This document shows positions 5,759 to 26,992 of a stretch of 32,000 bases of DNA, piece by piece. The translations under genes were made by a program, and so were the position numbers. Under the pieces are notes generated by a model. That model was not told where the DNA came from and ran no database searches. It worked only from the letters and a program-made list of their open reading frames with translations. Each line of letters opens with the position of its first letter. Position 1 is the first letter of the stretch. This DNA comes from Psychrobacter cryohalolentis K5 (GTDB lineage Bacteria; Pseudomonadota; Gammaproteobacteria; Pseudomonadales; Moraxellaceae), in NCBI RefSeq assembly GCF_000013905.1, contig NC_007969.1:1560001-1592000 (forward strand), written 5' to 3'.

Positions 5759-5834
5759 TGGTGCGCCCACAGGGACTCGAACCCCGATCGATCGCTTAGG
5801 AGGCAACTGCTCTATCCTGTTGAGCTATAGGCGC
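5759..5834 (-). tRNA. tRNA-Arg (anticodon CCU)
   Basis: The reverse complement GCGCCTA-TA-GCTC-AACAGGATA-GAGC-A-GTTGC-CTCCTAA-GCGAT-CGAT-CGGGG-TTCGAGT-CCCTG-TGGGCGC-A-CCA folds by hand into a 76-nt cloverleaf. It has a GTTCGAGT T-loop, an encoded CCA and anticodon CCT. The anticodon stem needs two G-U pairs. Confidence 0.85.
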
Positions 5835-5906: not shown

Positions 5907-6716
5907 TTATTTAGCAATACTGATAGCGTCAGCGACATCTACTGTCAACTCGCCTGTTGCTTTTTTGCCTTGCGTATTTGACTTAAACAGGTTTGCCATA
6001 TCATTTTGATAGCCATCGATATTTTCATAATCGTGTCTACTTAATATATCTTGCCCTGTACTTGAGAGTAAAAAGTTTCGAAAGTTAAGTGCAATAGGAT
6101 TTTGAGTTAAGATGACACCGTCTACTTTTTTCTTGTCTTTTAAGGCATAACTAAACGATACAAGACTTCGAGTGTTTGTATTATCAGCTTCACCTTTAGC
6201 AGCGATTTCATCAGCATTACTATCTGCATCAATAGTATCTTCTACCATGCCATTTTTTGCCTTGCTCTGGTTTTGTTTATCTTGTGCTATTTTTAATTTT
6301 TCTTGTAATGGTGCTAAGCGCGCTGCCGATAAATTGCCATCAGCAATAATGATATCGGTATCAACAATAAATAAAGACGGCTCATCATCGGCTACTTTAT
6401 TATCCGATAGTGTCAAAAGTGCAACAGAGGCGACATAACTTGTCATGATTTCTACATTGGGATAACGAGATTGAAAACTTGAAATCACAGCGTCTAAAGG
6501 CGTTTGTAGTTTTTCTTCTGCTTGTATGTGCAAAGTGCTCTTGGCAACCGTCTCTCCATCTTCTTCCGCTGAAGCAGTTGATCCACTCTCATTTGACATA
6601 ATAGGCAATGGATCCATGTTTTTACGATTGCTGGTCCATAACCAAGTAAAGATGGCGATAAAAATAATCAGCAGCAGTAAAATGAGCCCAGCCAGTAGCA
6701 GCTTGTAGTCTTTCAT
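5907..6716 (-). CDS. Membrane-anchored protein of unknown function, possibly with a periplasmic-binding-protein-like fold and an acidic low-complexity insert
   Basis: The 269-aa ORF has an N-terminal signal anchor (LLLAGLILLLLIIFIAIFTWLW). A D/E/N/K-rich central segment follows. The flanking blocks (LHIQAEEKLQTPLDAVISSFQSRYPNVEI, VDGVILTQNPIALNFRNFLLSSTGQDIL) only vaguely resemble ModA-type binding proteins. Confidence 0.65.
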   Translation of the reverse strand: MKDYKLLLAGLILLLLIIFIAIFTWLWTSNRKNMDPLPIMSNESGSTASAEEDGETVAKSTLHIQAEEKLQTPLDAVISSFQSRYPNVEIMTSYVASVALLTLSDNKVADDEPSLFIVDTDIIIADGNLSAARLAPLQEKLKIAQDKQNQSKAKNGMVEDTIDADSNADEIAAKGEADNTNTRSLVSFSYALKDKKKVDGVILTQNPIALNFRNFLLSSTGQDILSRHDYENIDGYQNDMANLFKSNTQGKKATGELTVDVADAISIAK

Positions 6717-6753: not shown

Positions 6754-7278
6754 TTAGAGCGGTTGATGCAGCACTTCATCTGCTAAATCCGCTAGCATAT
6801 CCGAAAAAATATCAGTTTGTTCTGGGTTTTTATGAGCAGTGGTATTATTGCTACTTGCCAGAGCAGAGAGGTAGTTTGAAGGGGAAGAGGGTTGATTGTC
6901 AATCATTTTTGTGGAGGTTTGATGCGCCGCCAATGGTGATTGTCCTGCACTTAGTTTGTCTTTAAGCCACTCAAAGCCGTGAGTTTCCCACCATGCCTCG
7001 AAGCGTGATAAGGTGCTTCCACGTACTGCCATAGGTAGATTTAGGGTCCGTAATTTTTGTGCCAAAATAGGGTCGCTTATGGCTTGATGAATACTCAGAT
7101 AGAGTCCACGACTGTCATCCTTATATGGCTGTCTATTTTGCCAAGATTGATGATCTATTTTCATGCGTGGCAATTGCCAAAGCTCACCGCGGTAGTATAC
7201 GACATATAAACGTCGTTTAGGGTGAATGAAAATGGCATCAATGGGACGCAAGGGCATAGTATTAAATTGTCTCATCAC
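6754..7278 (-). CDS. Hypothetical protein
   Basis: This is a 174-aa ORF starting at GTG 7278 or ATG 7275. It ends 37 bp upstream of the 5907..6716 gene on the same strand and is divergent from recC. I do not recognise a family. Confidence 0.6.
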   Translation of the reverse strand: MMRQFNTMPLRPIDAIFIHPKRRLYVVYYRGELWQLPRMKIDHQSWQNRQPYKDDSRGLYLSIHQAISDPILAQKLRTLNLPMAVRGSTLSRFEAWWETHGFEWLKDKLSAGQSPLAAHQTSTKMIDNQPSSPSNYLSALASSNNTTAHKNPEQTDIFSDMLADLADEVLHQPL

Positions 7279-19701: not shown

Positions 19702-20370
19702 TTATTCTGGCTTTTCTACGATAAAAGGGCGGTAATAGTTCGCCAAGCGATTCAATGAGCTGTCTGGCAAATCAGGTAACAACTTATTAAGTGCCATATT
19801 CATGCCTTTATCGATAGCTGCTTTGGCAACAGGTACAGATTTGCGTTTAATCATACCCAATTTTAAGGTTTCAGCAAAACGGCTAATAAAGTGAGTTAAA
19901 GTTTCTTCGTTCATGGTTTCGAGTGCGGTTTTAAATGTCTTGGTATCCACATGTTCAGGAGTAATGGCTGCAAAACCTTTTTGAATGATGGCAGTATGTT
20001 GTTCTGTGAGCTTAAAACCCACCCGTTTTAGACCGTCATTATCGATAAAGGTTGCTCGATCTCTTAGAAAATGGAAGCTTGGCAATACTTCTTCGTTATT
20101 TTCTTTACCCAGCAAAATATTAAGCAAGGTATCGGTCGCACGTTCAACAGTGACAACCACTTTACGCATGGACGCTTGGCGTTCAGGATTTGGGATAATG
20201 TCAACCAGACCAACCAATAAATTATCAATAAGATCACGCGCAGTCTGATGCGTTAAAGCATCGCGATATGGGTAGTATGGTACTTCCTCATTCGATGCAA
20301 TGATTTGCTCAGCTTCAACGATTAATGCTTTTAATTTATCTGAAGGTACAAATCCAAAATAATGCGCCAT
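19702..20370 (-). CDS. Hypothetical protein
   Basis: This is a 222-aa soluble-looking ORF with an ATG start, divergent from cstA. I do not recognise a family. Confidence 0.65.
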   Translation of the reverse strand: MAHYFGFVPSDKLKALIVEAEQIIASNEEVPYYPYRDALTHQTARDLIDNLLVGLVDIIPNPERQASMRKVVVTVERATDTLLNILLGKENNEEVLPSFHFLRDRATFIDNDGLKRVGFKLTEQHTAIIQKGFAAITPEHVDTKTFKTALETMNEETLTHFISRFAETLKLGMIKRKSVPVAKAAIDKGMNMALNKLLPDLPDSSLNRLANYYRPFIVEKPE

Positions 20371-20678: not shown

Positions 20679-22358
20679 ATGAATAGTGCAATCGTGCTAT
20701 TGTTTGCTGTTGCCGCTATGCTTTGCGGTTATCTGTTTTACTCAAAATTTATCGCCACTAAAATCTTGGCATTGGATAATAGTATCCCCACGCCAGCACA
20801 TACTATGAAGGATGGGGTAGATTATATTCCCACTAATAAATATGTGTTGTGGGGACACCATTTTACTTCAGTCGCAGGGGCAGCACCGATTATTGGTCCT
20901 GCCATTGCGGTTATTTGGGGCTGGGTACCTGCTATCATTTGGGTGGTATTAGGTACTATTTTTATGGCAGGTGTCCACGACATGTCTGCCATTTGGGCAA
21001 GTATGCGCAATCGAGGTCAATCGATTGGCTCGATTGCCGGTACGGTCATGGGTACACGTGTGCGCAGCTTGATGATGATCGTCATCTTTTTATTATTACT
21101 AATGGTAAATGCGGTATTCGGCGTCGCTATTGCTAATATGATGATAAAAACCCCATCCGCTGTACTGCCAGTTTGGGGTGCTTTGATAGTCGCCTTTATC
21201 ATCGGTCAATGCATTTATCGCTATAAGATGAATCTGGTTTGGGTATCAATCATTGGGGTCACGGCTTTATATGGGCTTATCTATCTTGGTCCTATGTTCC
21301 CCATTGTGTTACCTGAGACATTTTTAGGCTTACCTGACAATGCTGTTTGGATTATTATTTTATTTGTCTATGCGGCAATCGCGTCTTTGTTACCAGTCTG
21401 GATGCTGTTGCAGCCGCGCGATTACATCAATGGCTTGCAGTTATTTGTCGGTCTGATTTTATTATATGCCGCTATCTTTATTGCGACTCCTAATATTGTC
21501 GCGCCAGCGATCAACACAGCATTGCCAATCGGTACGCCATCTATGCTGCCTTTATTGTTTGTGACCATTGCTTGTGGTGCAATCTCAGGCTTTCATGGTT
21601 TGGTAGCGACAGGTACGACGTCTAAGCAAATTGATAAAGAAGAAGATGTGCGATTCGTTGGTTACTTCGGTGCCATGGGTGAGGGCATGCTAGCACTCGG
21701 TGCGATACTTGCGGCAACAGCAGGCTTTGCAACCCTTGGCGACTGGCAAGCCGTTTATCAAAAATTTGGCGACGGCTCTATTGGTGCCTTTATCGATGGC
21801 GGTGCGACTATCTTGAATGCAGGTGTTGGCATTGATATGGTTTTATCGCAGACGATGCTGACGGTAATGGCAGCATTGTTCGCTGGTACCACGATGGATA
21901 CTGGAGTACGTTTGCAACGCTATATCTTCCAAGAATTTGGTGAAATTTATAAACTGCCTGTTCTAAATAAAAGTGTGGTGGCCACATTGCTTGCCGTTGG
22001 TAGCTGTTTGTTATTAGCATTCGGTGCTGGTGGCATCGATGGTGCTGGTGGTATGATTATTTGGCCGTTATTTGGCACGACGAATCAGCTCATGGCAGCA
22101 TTAACCTTAATGATTGTAACCGTTATTTTATTACGTAAAGGCAGACCAGTATGGTATACCTTAGGGCCATTGTCGTTCTTACTGGTCATGACGGTTTTTG
22201 CATTATTGATTCAGCTAAAAACCTTTTTCAATGACGGTAATTGGCTGCTTATTATTATGGATATCATTATCTTGATAGCCACAATTTTAGTGACGTTTGA
22301 GAGTTTATCAGTACTCCGTAAAGAATGGTCGATACACAGAGGCAAAAGCAACCTCTAA
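20679..22358 (+). CDS. cstA: Carbon starvation protein A (CstA) family transporter, short 559-aa form
   Basis: A strong Shine-Dalgarno sequence (aaggagag) precedes the ATG. The signature N-terminal block is GVDYIPTNKYVLWGHHFTSVAGAAPIIGPAIAVIWGWVPAIIWVVLGTIFMAGVHD. The protein is polytopic. Confidence 0.92.
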   Translation: MNSAIVLLFAVAAMLCGYLFYSKFIATKILALDNSIPTPAHTMKDGVDYIPTNKYVLWGHHFTSVAGAAPIIGPAIAVIWGWVPAIIWVVLGTIFMAGVHDMSAIWASMRNRGQSIGSIAGTVMGTRVRSLMMIVIFLLLLMVNAVFGVAIANMMIKTPSAVLPVWGALIVAFIIGQCIYRYKMNLVWVSIIGVTALYGLIYLGPMFPIVLPETFLGLPDNAVWIIILFVYAAIASLLPVWMLLQPRDYINGLQLFVGLILLYAAIFIATPNIVAPAINTALPIGTPSMLPLLFVTIACGAISGFHGLVATGTTSKQIDKEEDVRFVGYFGAMGEGMLALGAILAATAGFATLGDWQAVYQKFGDGSIGAFIDGGATILNAGVGIDMVLSQTMLTVMAALFAGTTMDTGVRLQRYIFQEFGEIYKLPVLNKSVVATLLAVGSCLLLAFGAGGIDGAGGMIIWPLFGTTNQLMAALTLMIVTVILLRKGRPVWYTLGPLSFLLVMTVFALLIQLKTFFNDGNWLLIIMDIIILIATILVTFESLSVLRKEWSIHRGKSNL

Positions 22359-22389
22359 GCCATGTTGAATAATTAATGAAATGTCAGAT

Positions 22390-22420
22390 AAAACGCTAGC
22401 AGCAATTGCTGGCGTTTTTT
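22390..22420 (+). terminator. Rho-independent terminator after cstA
   Basis: aaaacgctagcagcaattgctggcgtttttt forms a GC-rich stem (acgc..cagc / gctg..gcgt) followed by T6. Confidence 0.7.
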
Positions 22421-22470
22421 GTCTCATATAGGCATGATAGATAATAAGCATACGCAAAATAAGGGTCATT

Positions 22471-22764
22471 ATGGAAAAGGCAGATATCACAAAACCTATA
22501 AAAAATATTGAGCCATGGTGGCAACGGTTTGCGGCTGGGTTAAACGAGTTTTATCATGCGCCGTATCGCCAGACGATGGCACGCGCCGCGCGTGATGAGG
22601 AAGATTTTTTTATGCTACTCATGTTTGCGGAAAGCTTAGGCATCGATAATCCGGCAAGCTTTTATACGCTAGAATTGCAGCCTTTGTTTTTAGAAAATTT
22701 CCATGAATGGCATACACGCATGGGCATGGATAGATGCCCTTTTGACCATGTTGGTTGCTGCTAG
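22471..22764 (+). CDS. Small CstA-neighbourhood protein ending in Cys-Cys-stop (resembles the family PGAP labels cory-CC-star protein)
   Basis: The 97-aa ORF has AAGGG 5 nt upstream of the ATG. The C-terminus reads ...RCPFDHVGCC followed by TAG, seen directly. It lies between a CstA-family gene and an ArsA-like ATPase gene. The family name is from memory. Confidence 0.75.
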   Translation: MEKADITKPIKNIEPWWQRFAAGLNEFYHAPYRQTMARAARDEEDFFMLLMFAESLGIDNPASFYTLELQPLFLENFHEWHTRMGMDRCPFDHVGCC

Positions 22765-22797
22765 TTTCCTTTGAATTAATTAAAACGAGATAAAAGT

Positions 22798-23814
22798 ATG
22801 GCATTACATCCATTGCCTGCATTGGTAGAGCAATTAATGACACAGCCGATTATATTTATCGGTGGAAAGGGCGGTGTCGGTAAAACTACCACTGCCGCTG
22901 CACTTGCCAGCTATTATGCCAATCAAGGTAAAAAGACACTGATTGTCTCGACCGATCCAGCACACAGCTTGGGCGATGTATTAAACGTCCCGCTCAAAAA
23001 CCAAAAAACAGCAGTAACTTCTTATCTAGATGCTATTGAACTAAACCCTGATATCATCGTCGATGAGCATTTTGCCCAAGTTGAACGCACCATTACTTCC
23101 TATGCAAACCCAGACATGATGCCAAAAATTCGCGAGCATCTACGGCTATCAAAATCAGCACCTGGTGCACAAGAAGCCGCGATGCTCGAATCCATGTGTC
23201 ACCATCTAGTCGAAGCAGCAGATGCCGGCTATGAGCACGTTATTTTTGATACCGCACCGACGGGACATACACTGCGTTTATTAGTGCTGCCTGAGATGAT
23301 GGGGGCATGGACGGATGGATTGCTAGCGCAGCAGCGAAGGCAAGCAAAACTGCGCTCAGTGGCAAATCATTTGGGCAGTCATGAACAAGACAATAATAAA
23401 AACGACTTAGCCAATCCGTTTGCCGCAAAAAAAACCGACCGCTGGGAGCAAGCAGTATCCGTACTAGAAAAACGCAAACAGCTGTTTCGTCAGGCAGGGT
23501 TGCTGCTTCATGACCGTACACAAACCGCCATTGTATTAGTGATGACGGCTGACGTATTGCCACTGGCTGAAACAAAGCGAGCGATAGAGCAGTTAGAAGA
23601 CAGTAAACTTATGCCAGCCGCAATCGTTATCAATCAGTTGATATCTCCGACGCAGTCCGATACGTTTTGGCATCGTCGTGCTGAGCGCCAACAGCAATTA
23701 ATGCAAGATATTGAAAAGAATTTTTCCGAGTATCCGCTATACCCAATATATCTGCAGCAAACCGACGTACGCGGTACTGATGCCTTAAGTGCATTAGTAA
23801 GCCCGGCATCATAA
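22798..23814 (+). CDS. ArsA/GET3/TRC40-family ATPase (single-domain, 338 aa)
   Basis: It has the deviant Walker A IGGKGGVGKTTTAAALA, STDPAHSLGDVL, and the ArsA-family signature DTAPTGHTLRLL. It starts 33 bp after the CC-terminal ORF. Confidence 0.9.
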   Translation: MALHPLPALVEQLMTQPIIFIGGKGGVGKTTTAAALASYYANQGKKTLIVSTDPAHSLGDVLNVPLKNQKTAVTSYLDAIELNPDIIVDEHFAQVERTITSYANPDMMPKIREHLRLSKSAPGAQEAAMLESMCHHLVEAADAGYEHVIFDTAPTGHTLRLLVLPEMMGAWTDGLLAQQRRQAKLRSVANHLGSHEQDNNKNDLANPFAAKKTDRWEQAVSVLEKRKQLFRQAGLLLHDRTQTAIVLVMTADVLPLAETKRAIEQLEDSKLMPAAIVINQLISPTQSDTFWHRRAERQQQLMQDIEKNFSEYPLYPIYLQQTDVRGTDALSALVSPAS

Positions 23815-23855: not shown

Positions 23856-25472
23856 TTATTGCTGACCCTGATACGACGACAGCTTACTTGCCAGCGACCA
23901 TGCCATATCTGCGCGTAATAACTGCGCCTGCTCAGACTTGCCACTACTGAGTGATGACCACTGCGGTTTGCCACGAGCTTTTTTCAGCTCACTGGGCAGT
24001 TTGTGCGTTGCCCATGGCGTTATAGCATTATTATTCCCAGCGTCAGTATCACCAATTGAGGCCTCACCCTTATATATCAGCTGCGTAGCATCTGTTGCTG
24101 CATGCCCACGGTGACGTAGCGCAGTGAGCAAATCTATCGCTCGAGTGGCTAGCAGGGTCAATGTTGCAGGGTCGATATATAACCGCTTAACCCCTGATAT
24201 TTTATCGGCGATACTGCCAGTATTGGATAGCAATCCACCTGCGATGCCACCGATGGCAGCACCCAATCCCAAGGTTGTACCAAGAGCCGCCGCATCAATA
24301 CCCAATCCTAGTAACGCGCCAGCCGCAGCGCCTGATGTGGTGCGAATACCATAACTTTTTAGCAGCTCAGGGTCGAACGGGTCTTGCTGATAGGCCTGTA
24401 GCTCAAGTGGCGTTGCCGCTACATCATTGTCATAAAATTTGTATAAACTCAGCAAATTATGCTGCATTGCTCGTTCGCTCTGTCTAACCGCTTCTTGCAT
24501 TTGCTGTAATACTGGCATGGGATCATCATCTTCGCCAATTTCACGGACAAATGCTGCGACGTTTAACAAGAAATCTGCAATGATAATATTGGCTTCATCA
24601 TATAACTGTGCCCAGTTTTCAGTGCGGCGCGCCATTAATTGCTCAAGCATCTCAGAGTGGGTAAGCATGGTGGCTAAATTCTTCCATAAACGCATCTCAT
24701 CGTTAAATTCAAATGCCACTGAATCAAAGCGCGTCGAGATATGTAAGTTACGTCTTGCCAGCATAGTCTGCCAGTCATCAATATTGGCATCCTGAGCATC
24801 AGTGAAATTAAATACCGGCATAACAGGAATCGCGGCCCAAGATAAAATAGCCAGCTCATCTCTATATTTACCGAGTACCGGCTCACGTGCATCGACAACA
24901 TAAATAGCCATATCACTTGCTAACAGCTGACGAATCACTTTGGCTTCCTGGCTATAGTCCTCATTGCTACTTAGCGCATCACTACTTTGAGCAATATCAG
25001 ATGCCAAAAACTGTTGCAGGCGCTCAATACCATCACGGCGACTGGCGGTATTATCCTCAAGCCAATCCATCAGCCCTGATGCGTCCTCCAAACCTGGCGT
25101 GTCATATAGAGCCACCAATATTTCACCCGTTTGACTATCCGTCAGTTGGGCGCGCTCTACATGACGGGTAGTTGCGGCTTCATTTTTTACTTCACCGAAG
25201 TAAACGTCACGCAATAGAGTACGTAATATAGAAGTCTTACCCGTATTGGTATGACCAACGACCGCAAGCTTTAATGCCTCACCACTAGCGATGGTTTTTT
25301 TAGCTGTCCTGTAGCTAGTCTCTGGTTCACTTGATGACTGTGGGGCTAATCCAGACGATGATGCTTGAGGATTGACCTCATGCGCTTTATCAGCAAAAAG
25401 CCCTGCAGGCTTATCGGTTTTTTGCAGACTGTTCTGCGCATTATTTCCTTGATTATTATTGTCGTTATTCAT
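23856..25472 (-). CDS. GTPase with C-terminal glycine-zipper membrane segment (GTPase/DUF3482-like)
   Basis: G1 is GHTNTGKTS, G3 is LYDTPGLED, and a possible G4 variant is FNFTDA. The N-terminus is N/Q/S-rich and low-complexity. The segment SGAAAGALLGLGIDAAALGTTLGLGAAIGGIAGGLLS is typical of DUF3482 proteins as I recall them. Confidence 0.82.
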   Translation of the reverse strand: MNNDNNNQGNNAQNSLQKTDKPAGLFADKAHEVNPQASSSGLAPQSSSEPETSYRTAKKTIASGEALKLAVVGHTNTGKTSILRTLLRDVYFGEVKNEAATTRHVERAQLTDSQTGEILVALYDTPGLEDASGLMDWLEDNTASRRDGIERLQQFLASDIAQSSDALSSNEDYSQEAKVIRQLLASDMAIYVVDAREPVLGKYRDELAILSWAAIPVMPVFNFTDAQDANIDDWQTMLARRNLHISTRFDSVAFEFNDEMRLWKNLATMLTHSEMLEQLMARRTENWAQLYDEANIIIADFLLNVAAFVREIGEDDDPMPVLQQMQEAVRQSERAMQHNLLSLYKFYDNDVAATPLELQAYQQDPFDPELLKSYGIRTTSGAAAGALLGLGIDAAALGTTLGLGAAIGGIAGGLLSNTGSIADKISGVKRLYIDPATLTLLATRAIDLLTALRHRGHAATDATQLIYKGEASIGDTDAGNNNAITPWATHKLPSELKKARGKPQWSSLSSGKSEQAQLLRADMAWSLASKLSSYQGQQ

Positions 25473-25585: not shown

Positions 25586-26992
25586 TCAGTTATTAACCAA
25601 ACCGATTTTTCGAGCAGATAGGGCGGTTTGCCATTGCTGATAACGAACATGTTGTTTTTCTAAATTCGAGTCTGAACCAGCATTTAACACATCATTGCCC
25701 GTATTATGGTGCTCTGTCAGACTCAGGCTATTGTCCTCTAACAGTTGTACAATCAGTCCATGTTTGGCGTGATTGGCGATCTGATCAAGTTTACGCAATG
25801 TACCACGGTCAGGCAGCGCTTTAAAATGAATACCAAGCAATACCTGTACCGGATTTGCATCTAGGTAAGCCTTTAGCCGTGCCATATCTTCACGGTCATC
25901 AAGAATACCAAAATTCTCAATATCAGTCGTATCAGTAATGCCTGTAACGAAACCCGACTGCCACCATTGGTTTTGCTCCGCTGGATACTCTAATAGCGCA
26001 ACCAGTTTTTTGCCCGCACTGACTTGGGCTTTTGGGGCGATAGGCGCGGGGGCTTCTTTAAAGTCATCAGCATCCACCACATGACGCTGCCAAAAATTCA
26101 AAATCTTTTGATAATAAGGCAGCTTAATATCCAAACGCATCTTTTTACGACGGAACATCAAGGCACAAAATGCCCAAGCAATCGCGCGTGGGACAATCCC
26201 GTACATCAGTAAACTACCAACCAACAAGCCTGCCCATTGCCGTGCGACAGACAAAGGCATAGCATCAGTCACTAATCGGCTCTGTACGATAGCCGTACTG
26301 TCCGGAACATCGAATCCAACCATACTTGGTAACCATCCAAGTACTTGCGTCAAAGTAATTAGCGCCTGATCTGACAGCAGCGTTGACTCCCAGCTAAAGC
26401 TGTATTGACGCACAATCAACAGAAAAATAATCGCAAGCAGCATACCGGTCAGTGTGGCAAGCCATAACTGATGACTAAATCTGCCTAAATACCAACGCAT
26501 ACCGCTGTGTTGCAGCTGCCGCTCATATAAATTCACCGCTGCCTGAGTTACATCATCTTTACCACGTATCAAATAACTGGGACTGACAAAGCTGGCAAAC
26601 CAATTTGAAGACTGCTTGCCTTGATTGATAAGCGTCATGACTAGCCAGCCCAGAAGCATAAGACTATGAAAACCCAATAAGCATACCAAGACGTAAAAGA
26701 AGTTCACCACATTGGTCTGCAATAAGGTAAATAATCCCAAAAATCCTGAGAGACACCAAATCACGCTCATGACAACCATGATGCCTTTGATGCGACCATC
26801 AATCTTACCAAGCACGCCTGCCAGCGCGCCATTGCTGTCTATTCGTGACGCTCGTCGATGCAGTTTTTGCAGTGGCGAACCTTCTTCATTTTGCAGCTTT
26901 TCAGTAATGAGTAGCGGGTCAGTAGCAAAGACGTGCTGCTGCGTCTCAAGAGTACGTACCAGCTCAGTCAATTGGTCTTGGGGCGATAGCAT
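25586..26992 (-). CDS. Polytopic membrane protein (DUF2868-like), upstream partner of the GTPase
   Basis: The 468-aa ORF has several predicted TM helices (IMVVMSVIWCLSGFLGLFTLL, FFYVLVCLLGFHSLMLLGWLVMTL, LWLATLTGMLLAIIFLLIV, WAGLLVGSLLMYGIVPRAIAWAFCALMF). A soluble C-terminal half follows. It is on the same strand as the GTPase gene, 113 bp upstream. The family name is from memory. Confidence 0.75.
   Translation of the reverse strand: MLSPQDQLTELVRTLETQQHVFATDPLLITEKLQNEEGSPLQKLHRRASRIDSNGALAGVLGKIDGRIKGIMVVMSVIWCLSGFLGLFTLLQTNVVNFFYVLVCLLGFHSLMLLGWLVMTLINQGKQSSNWFASFVSPSYLIRGKDDVTQAAVNLYERQLQHSGMRWYLGRFSHQLWLATLTGMLLAIIFLLIVRQYSFSWESTLLSDQALITLTQVLGWLPSMVGFDVPDSTAIVQSRLVTDAMPLSVARQWAGLLVGSLLMYGIVPRAIAWAFCALMFRRKKMRLDIKLPYYQKILNFWQRHVVDADDFKEAPAPIAPKAQVSAGKKLVALLEYPAEQNQWWQSGFVTGITDTTDIENFGILDDREDMARLKAYLDANPVQVLLGIHFKALPDRGTLRKLDQIANHAKHGLIVQLLEDNSLSLTEHHNTGNDVLNAGSDSNLEKQHVRYQQWQTALSARKIGLVNN

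Follow-up and report, generated by a model that had tools for sequence, protein, structure and literature searches.

The window analysed in this study, a 32,000-nucleotide (nt) stretch of the Psychrobacter cryohalolentis K5 genome (NC_007969.1, positions 1,560,001-1,592,000), carries at 20679-23814 three genes on one strand. They encode a permease of the CstA family, a small protein of 97 amino acids (aa) ending in two cysteines (CstX, also named cory-CC-star or DUF7990) and a single-domain ATPase of the ArsA/Get3 family. The trio belongs to a module that is already known, conserved and uncharacterised. On the basis of sequence comparison and of analogy with related systems, we propose that it may form a three-component CstA-type uptake system, in which the ATPase and the small protein would drive or gate uptake from the cytoplasmic side of CstA, and we would give this reading a probability of about 45%. 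An earlier reading of the same DNA, referred to as the preliminary description, had put forward the small protein as a coupler between ATPase and transporter, which is a plausible role. The coordinates it gave for the trio, the 33-bp spacing between small gene and ATPase gene, the ...GCC-stop ending, the GGKGGVGKTT and DTAPTGHT motifs and the lone cysteine in ESMCHH were all found again on the sequence.

Conservation of the module

Analysis of gene linkage was performed with one genome per species. The small protein had relatives in at least 583 loci, of which the best 80 were retrieved, and the neighbour-gene counts rest on the 79 informative loci among them. The ATPase gene came next after the small gene in every case (79/79), and a CstA gene was located upstream on the same strand in 63 of the 79, directly adjacent in nearly all. 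CstA-linked loci comprised all those of Psychrobacter type, those of Luteimonas, Pseudoxanthomonas, Stutzerimonas, Pseudomonas, Idiomarina, Microbulbifer, Oligella and Lautropia, those of the actinobacterial genera Kocuria, Yaniella and Zhihengliuella, and one Vicinamibacteria metagenome-assembled genome. The linkage covered Gamma- and Betaproteobacteria, Actinobacteria and Acidobacteria, and the conserved three-gene module suspected in the preliminary description was thereby recovered far beyond Psychrobacter. No other gene, COG0523 included, was found to recur near the module in diverse bacteria; one COG0523 gene was present about 7 kilobases (kb) downstream in a single Psychrobacter locus. 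The nearest relatives of the three window proteins were all Psychrobacter sequences.

Outside Psychrobacter, the stop codon of cstA and the start codon of the small gene overlapped by 4 nt in several loci and lay at most 56 nt apart in most others. In about 30 loci, the P-loop of the ATPase was encoded 36 nt past the stop codon of the small gene, so that the two coding regions must overlap. Gene overlap of this kind within the module implies co-translation. In the window, the ATPase open reading frame (ORF) begins 33 nt past the small-gene stop.

The module had been treated as unrecognised in the preliminary description. It is not new, since it was published in 2010 and the small protein has curated family models. 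Castillo & Saier (Int J Microbiol 2010:187373; PMC2963123) reported 26 clusters of cstA, cstX and an arsA homologue, with a CstX of about 90 aa in 24 of them. Their ArsA cluster 18 contained Psychrobacter arcticus 273-4 (339 aa, tabulated as Par3), Psychrobacter PRwf-1, Alcanivorax, Idiomarina loihiensis, I. baltica, P. stutzeri and Brevibacterium linens. The I. baltica OS145 locus was also among those retrieved here (L068). The same paper gives congruent trees for CstA, CstX and ArsA, and already proposes CstX as the link between CstA and the hydrolysis of ATP, which is the adaptor idea of the preliminary description. The window trio (559, 97 and 338 aa) agrees with this operon description, including a single-domain ArsA homologue of about 330 aa and the absence of ars genes. 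However, two of its statements do not agree with our data. CstX was described there with a single transmembrane segment, and the protein is predicted here to be soluble; CstX was also said never to occur without CstA, which is contradicted by 16 loci lacking an adjacent CstA gene (see below). In the available part of that paper, the two C-terminal cysteines are not mentioned. None of the papers searched contained the terms cory-CC-star, PF25952 or DUF7990, and nothing functional was found in them on these or on the YjiX and YjiA combination. What is added here is that CstX is, by prediction, soluble, that its Cys-Cys and H78/H81 are clade-specific, that no cysteine is conserved among the partner ATPases, and that CC-star proteins are not detectably related to YbdD/YjiX.

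The small protein CstX

The suggestion of the preliminary description that the 97-aa protein might be a cory-CC-star protein was verified with the corresponding hidden Markov model, NCBIfam NF041419: a score of 131.4 bits was obtained against a cutoff of 80, and residues 19-97 covered positions 2-80 of the 80 in the model. Homologues of the protein bear a precomputed assignment to Pfam PF25952 (DUF7990). In a local copy of Pfam, no family matched the window protein at E <= 0.01, DUF466 and ArsD included.

The protein terminates in ...DRCPFDHVGCC, followed by a TAG codon. The Cys-Cys-stop ending was present in 80/80 related loci, with TAG (41), TAA (27) and TGA (12) as stop codons. An exhaustive profile search over 1.8 billion representatives yielded 165 clusters, and 148 family representatives were examined: 84 of them had the same ending, the remainder being mostly fragments or members of a distant subgroup without Cys-Cys. 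Every full-length member of the CC-star clade terminates in Cys-Cys. The mean column identity of the small protein was 57% across phyla. The ORF, its terminal cysteines and its widespread linkage, whose lack of conservation would have spoken against the preliminary description, were thus all conserved. Residues invariant in the CC-star clade include H78, W80, H81, R83, M84, P90, C96 and C97. Only G57 and W80 are invariant over the whole superfamily, and the distant subgroup has in common only the core D.F.LL.F.D.LGIPNP.SYYTLELLPY...W.RRM. C89, the third cysteine of the Psychrobacter protein, is a serine elsewhere.

The AlphaFold2 model of CstX (predicted local distance difference test score 76.6) consists of a helix from residue 8 to 55, an LGIDNP loop, a second helix from 66 to 83 and an unstructured 14-residue tail bearing the two cysteines. 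The Kyte-Doolittle maximum over 19 residues was 1.07, for typical values of about 1.6 in transmembrane helices. CstX is therefore predicted to be a soluble two-helix hairpin and not a membrane protein. No relative with a solved structure was found by sequence (best E 0.9), and a Foldseek comparison with the PDB gave 0 hits.

Some features of individual family members are worth recording. Two proteins (P0279 and P0315), from Campylobacter pinnipediorum and from Pasteurellaceae (Ursidibacter, Bisgaardia, Otariodibacter), have a variant tail ...FENFPCSCCC, in which four of the last six residues are cysteines, three of them terminal. Several CC-star proteins are misnamed 'DNA helicase' (P0063, P0075, P0523-P0527). 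Natural fusions of CstA and CC-star were considered as evidence of interaction and set aside. In P0299 (184 aa, a contig fragment) and P0245 (461 aa, with a garbled, frameshift-like middle), a CstA segment runs in frame into CC-star, but both are probably artefacts, due to a frameshift or to fragmentation, and P0373 consists of repeat junk.

The ArsA/Get3-like ATPase

The ATPase scored 232.8 bits on the family model TIGR00345 (GET3_arsA_TRC40, cutoff 135) and 223.5 bits on Pfam ArsA_ATPase. On the ArsA equivalog model TIGR04291, it reached 154.5 bits, far from the cutoff of 650. The closest solved structures by sequence were those of Chlamydomonas ArsA1 (5zme, E 1e-56) and of an archaeal Get3 (3zq6, E 2.5e-46, over the full length). 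E. coli ArsA aligned only to the N-terminal half of the window protein. In an alignment of 42 partner ATPases, the motifs GGKGGVGKTT, STDPAHS and DTAPTGHT were at least 90% conserved.

Cysteines are scarce in these proteins. The window ATPase has a single one, C134 in ESMCHH, which is not conserved; no alignment column reached 20% cysteine among the 42 partners, and 16 of the 42 have no cysteine at all. CxxC motifs were found in 0/42, the SDCEFCN segment of 3zq6 being aligned to SDTFWHR in the window ATPase, and the window ATPase lacks the metalloid-binding cysteine triad. The 32-kb window holds no ars genes, and arsB/acr3, arsD and arsR were not recurrent in the related loci. With its one domain of 338 aa, its score on the equivalog model, its lack of the triad and its lack of ars neighbours, the protein is indeed not an arsenite pump subunit, as the preliminary description had supposed. 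The handover of As(III) from an ArsD-like small protein to the ATPase, which it had also contemplated, is unlikely, since the ATPase offers no thiol to accept the metalloid and ars genes are missing from its surroundings.

These observations are of practical relevance, as ATPases of this type are routinely misannotated as arsenical pump-driving ATPases or arsenic-resistance genes. Two of the homologues (P0167 and P0172) carry the names 'arsenical pump-driving ATPase' and 'arsenite efflux ATP-binding protein ArsA'. A 2026 genome paper on Psychrobacter SC65A.3 counts arsA among the heavy-metal resistance genes of the strain, whose orthologue of the window ATPase bears the arsenical-pump name. 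On the present evidence, the window ATPase gene ought not to be counted among the determinants of arsenic resistance. The homologue search for this protein returned only Psychrobacter orthologues, with at least 87% identity, and the P. arcticus 273-4 protein (P0172, 339 aa) shared 92% identity with the query along 100% of its length. 'Par1' and 'Par2' of the 2010 paper were considered as a possible second window copy or Psychrobacter paralogues and discarded, both belonging to Pyrobaculum arsenaticum.

The CstA permease and the hairpin that follows it

The window permease scored 449.6 bits on Pfam CstA (PF02554). On NF011590, the equivalog model of the E. coli CstA pyruvate/H+ symporter, it obtained only 227 bits, the cutoff being 1188, and its substrate cannot therefore be transferred from E. 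coli CstA. No PDB relative was found for it by sequence.

The terminator noted after cstA in the preliminary description corresponds to a hairpin of sequence AAACGCTAGCAG-CAATT-GCTGGCGTTT, with an 11-bp stem and a folding energy of -14.8 kcal/mol, followed by the T-run TTTGTCTC. An equivalent hairpin was present in 18/18 Psychrobacter loci examined. The hairpin escaped a consensus terminator scan, since the A-tract at its side is paired with the T-tract. Most loci from other genera have no room for such a hairpin, owing to the overlap or the spacing of at most 56 nt between cstA and the small gene. On the plus strand, a simple scan of the DNA from the hairpin to the small gene revealed no sigma-70 promoter of consensus type. 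The intergenic regions gave no match to a known RNA element either, as only a tRNA was detected in an Rfam scan of the whole window at gathering thresholds. In a few Psychrobacter loci, insertions of 0.8-1.8 kb separate cstA from the small gene, and one locus has the downstream COG0523 gene mentioned above (L040 15602-16288, L041 6070-7908, L039 7226-8004).

Haloarchaeal trios without Cys-Cys

A block of DUF7990, ArsA-like and CstA genes was also observed in Halorubrum, Haloferax, Natronorubrum and Halomarina. CstA lies upstream of the pair in Bacteria and downstream of it in these haloarchaea. Their DUF7990 proteins have 98 aa and end in QYHF, without Cys-Cys and without H78/H81. Since haloarchaea keep the trio in the absence of these residues, thiol chemistry cannot be its ancestral core, which weakens the thiol-based role suggested in the preliminary description. 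The helical core is ancestral, and the histidines and the Cys-Cys are an invariant but clade-specific addition to it.

In the four haloarchaeal genera (4/4), a gene for a COG0523/CobW GTPase divergently adjoins the trio, and a DUF8052 gene is convergent after CstA (L083 3164-8998; L085 3614-8941; L086 3537-9098; L087 3072-9025). The COG0523 neighbour echoes YjiA in the E. coli btsT-yjiX-yjiA locus, and places two nucleoside triphosphatases (NTPases) of the SIMIBI class beside one CstA.

Proposed mechanism and alternative explanations

In the mechanism that we propose, the ATPase would be an ATP-dependent homodimer, as are other deviant-Walker-A (SIMIBI) ATPases, and the small protein would be a stoichiometric partner, bound to it by a conserved amphipathic core (D.F.LL.F..LGIPNP.SYYTLELLPY...W.RRM). 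The resulting complex would dock on the cytoplasmic face of CstA and couple ATP binding and hydrolysis to permease activity, uptake being energised or gated in the manner of ArsA acting on ArsB. The free Cys-Cys C-terminus, together with H78 and H81, would represent a clade-specific contact, most likely metal- or redox-sensitive, on which the mechanism would not centre. In Psychrobacter, the hairpin after cstA may lower or separate the expression of the two accessory genes. This coupling is suggested by the linkage and overlap of the genes, by the conserved motifs of the ATPase and by the conservation of a small protein predicted to be soluble and helical, as well as by the congruent trees of 2010 and the precedent of E. 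coli ybdD.

Several points weigh against such a coupling. E. coli CstA and BtsT are pyruvate/proton symporters that work without an ArsA-like ATPase, hence permeases of the CstA family are not intrinsically ATP-dependent. In Psychrobacter, the terminator-like hairpin parts cstA from the small gene and ATPase pair. The 16 informative loci in which the pair has no adjacent CstA gene, all from one Pseudohongiella-like lineage, place it inside a housekeeping block (smpB-ratA-rnfH ... fur-bamE-recN-grpE), and allow a role that is independent of CstA. Finally, no experimental follow-up on CstX was found in the papers searched.

Of the other explanations, the one that survives best, although it is unlikely, is a chaperone or biogenesis function resembling that of Get3. 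The ATPase dimer would take hold of the small protein by its hydrophobic helix, or of parts of CstA, and aid membrane delivery or assembly of the permease complex instead of taking part in each transport cycle. The full-length alignment with archaeal Get3 (3zq6) and with ArsA1 (5zme), which targets tail-anchored proteins in chloroplasts, is in line with this possibility, as are a conserved hydrophobic stretch of the small protein (FFMLLMFAESLGI) and the conserved hydrophobic residues of the helical subdomain of the ATPase (L164, M168, W171, L175, L223, F230). Farkas et al. also note that bacteria have single-domain Get3 homologues without CxxC which resemble the archaeal Get3 that binds tail-anchored proteins. 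However, the small protein has no transmembrane segment or tail anchor, as its hydropathy maximum indicates, and the CxxC motif is absent from the ATPase. Residues 171-230 of the latter, which correspond to the TRC40-insert region, have no methionine and include a polar stretch (GSHEQDNNKNDLANPFAAKKTD), as read from the primary sequence, the geometry of a groove being a matter for a structure. Moreover, it would be unusual for a single permease to have a chaperone of its own that is kept all the way from Archaea to Actinobacteria.

Another possible explanation, which we consider improbable as an account of the whole module, can be based on the thiols. The module would then be a metal, metalloid or redox device similar to ArsD-ArsA or to the SIMIBI metallochaperones, in which the Cys-Cys tail and H78, H81 and H93 would bind a metal or form a reversible disulfide and make the activity of the ATPase or of the transporter dependent on metal or redox state. 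Related SIMIBI ATPases do bind metals through interface cysteines, as illustrated by the cysteine triad of ArsA, the CxxC zinc site of Get3 and the CxCC of COG0523 proteins. As the ATPase dimer has no cysteines of its own in many partners (16/42) and no conserved one in any column, the tails of the small proteins would supply the ligands in trans. The strict conservation of C96, C97, H78 and H81 within the CC-star clade argues for this explanation. So does the presence of non-homologous proteins with Cys-Cys or Cys-selenocysteine C-termini next to CstA paralogues and other transporters, and that of metallochaperone-type COG0523 GTPases beside the module in haloarchaea and in a CstA-type locus of E. 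coli. Against it stand the haloarchaeal homologues, which keep ATPase and CstA without Cys-Cys or H78/H81, and the absence of recurrent ars, metal-efflux or metal-regulator genes near the related loci. There is also no conserved three-thiol As(III) site, given that C89 is a serine outside Psychrobacter. The thiols could also form a clade-specific layer on the coupling mechanism proposed above.

That the small protein and the ATPase act independently of CstA, their adjacency reflecting co-regulation only, for instance in starvation, is quite improbable: the pair is the tighter unit (79/79 versus 63/79), it lacks CstA beside it in the Pseudohongiella-like loci and it is set apart by the conserved Psychrobacter hairpin, but CstA is found again beside it in four or more bacterial phyla or classes and also, with the genes in another order, in Archaea, no other gene recurs beside the pair, and the exceptions come from a single lineage in whose genomes CstA may be located elsewhere.

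The proposed coupling of ATPase, small protein and CstA can be extended into a more general scheme, to which we would give only small odds. Permeases of the CstA family would generally be multi-subunit systems, in which a small cytoplasmic subunit would have arisen at least twice (DUF466 and DUF7990), often together with a SIMIBI NTPase of either the ArsA/Get3-like or the COG0523 type. The Cys-Cys tails of two bound small proteins would give thiols in trans to the cysteine-free ATPase dimer and create a nucleotide switch on uptake that responds to metal or redox state.

Feature coordinates and neighbouring genes

Table 1. Positions, within the 32,000-nt window, of the features of the module and of its neighbours
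Feature	Coordinates	Strand	Length, model or basis
cstA-family permease gene, short CstA subfamily	20679-22358	+	559 aa; Pfam PF02554
Terminator-like hairpin (22391-22417) and T-run, 3' of cstA	22391-22425	+	RNA folding; equivalent in 18/18 Psychrobacter loci examined
cory-CC-star / DUF7990 / CstX gene	22471-22764	+	97 aa; NF041419; ends Cys96-Cys97-TAG
Codons of the C-terminal Cys-Cys and stop, TGC TGC TAG	22756-22764	+	direct sequence reading
Single-domain ArsA/Get3-family ATPase gene	22798-23814	+	338 aa; TIGR00345
Deviant Walker A P-loop, G22-GKGGVGKT-T31	22861-22890	+	direct reading; at least 90% conserved in 42 partner ATPases
Switch II / ArsA signature, D151-TAPTGH-T158	23248-23271	+	direct reading; D151, T152, A153, P154, G156, H157 and T158 at least 90% conserved
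GTPase gene with DUF3482 domain	23856-25472	-	538 aa
DUF2868 protein gene	25586-26992	-	468 aa
Gene divergent from cstA	19702-20370	-	222 aa
ORF between the gene of a FAD-dependent protein and recC	5907-6716	-	269 aa
ORF between the gene of a FAD-dependent protein and recC	6754-7278	-	174 aa
tRNA	5762-5834	-	Rfam

The ATPase gene is followed by two convergent genes, encoding a GTPase with a DUF3482 domain and a DUF2868 protein (Table 1). This gene pair was syntenic in nearly all Psychrobacter loci and absent from the loci of other taxa, which places it probably outside the module. The 222-aa protein encoded divergently from cstA had no Pfam or NCBIfam match, and its position was likewise kept in nearly all Psychrobacter loci. 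Further away, two ORFs of 269 and 174 aa without Pfam match adjoin the tRNA gene and lie between recC and the gene of a protein dependent on FAD (flavin adenine dinucleotide).

In the Pseudohongiella-like loci (L053 5601-12014 and 15 related ones), the pair was preceded by genes for an SNF-family Na+ symporter, ratA and rnfH. It was followed by a TonB-dependent receptor gene, whose product has long His/Glu-rich loops (HEEEGHDEEE repeats), and then by fur. These flanks may reflect a link with metals or simple synteny.

Comparison with known systems

With respect to cory-CC-star (NF041419), the window protein is a full-length member with the same Cys-Cys-stop and the same ArsA-family neighbour, and nothing differs at the family level. 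PF25952 (DUF7990) is broader and takes in the haloarchaeal proteins without Cys-Cys; neither model has a function attached.

In the E. coli cstA-ybdD and btsT-yjiX-yjiA loci, as in the window, a gene for a CstA-family permease is followed by one for a small soluble protein with a Cys-Cys C-terminus. The permeases of E. coli have about 700 aa, compared with 559 for the window CstA. The next gene of the btsT locus encodes YjiA, a P-loop GTPase of the SIMIBI class (COG0523), where the window has an ArsA/Get3 ATPase instead. Deletion of ybdD phenocopies that of cstA in E. coli, and ybdD is thus genetically needed for CstA-dependent pyruvate uptake; a CstA-YbdD complex predicted by AlphaFold-Multimer has also been published. 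The statement in the preliminary description that YbdD and YjiX end in Cys-Cys was right, both proteins ending in RCC where the window protein ends in GCC. The selenocysteine that it ascribed to some lineages does exist, but in the reverse order: the relatives in Campylobacter and Helicobacter end in Lys-Cys-selenocysteine and not in selenocysteine-Cys. The occurrence beside transporters of small proteins with a Cys-Cys or Cys-selenocysteine C-terminus has been pointed out by Haft as a recurring theme. As an analogy of gene order and C-terminal ending, the parallel with CstA-YbdD/YjiX therefore holds. As homology it does not: CC-star was tried as a homologue of DUF466 (PF04328), a check proposed in the preliminary description, and rejected, with no Pfam hit and an hhalign probability of 0.3% in a comparison having a single YbdD sequence on the DUF466 side. 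The resemblance is apparently one of architecture and not of ancestry.

Like Get3/TRC40 (3zq6), the window ATPase is of the single-domain homodimer type, and the two can be aligned over their full length. Unlike Get3, it lacks the CxxC zinc motif, its insert region is polar and methionine-free, and its partner has no tail anchor. According to Farkas et al. in 2019, the functions of single-domain bacterial Get3 homologues are still unclear, and the module offers one of a small number of genomic clues to the role of the single-domain ArsA/Get3-like ATPases of bacteria and archaea.

The small protein cannot be assimilated to ArsD, which is thioredoxin-like and uses Cys12-Cys13-Cys18: it is all-helical according to its model, and only its terminal Cys-Cys is conserved. 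The ArsA-ArsB(-ArsD) pump is nevertheless comparable with the window module in its ATPase fold, its DTAPTGHT signature, its permease of secondary type and its small accessory protein with vicinal cysteines. The window ATPase differs from ArsA in having one domain instead of two, in lacking the cysteine triad and in having no arsR, arsB, arsC or arsD neighbours. Through ArsA, ArsB is converted from a secondary carrier to a pump driven by ATP. If coupling through an adaptor proves true for CstA, the module would provide, after ArsAB, a second case of an ArsA-class ATPase that drives or gates a secondary-type carrier, and it would change the view of the CstA 'carbon starvation' transporters.

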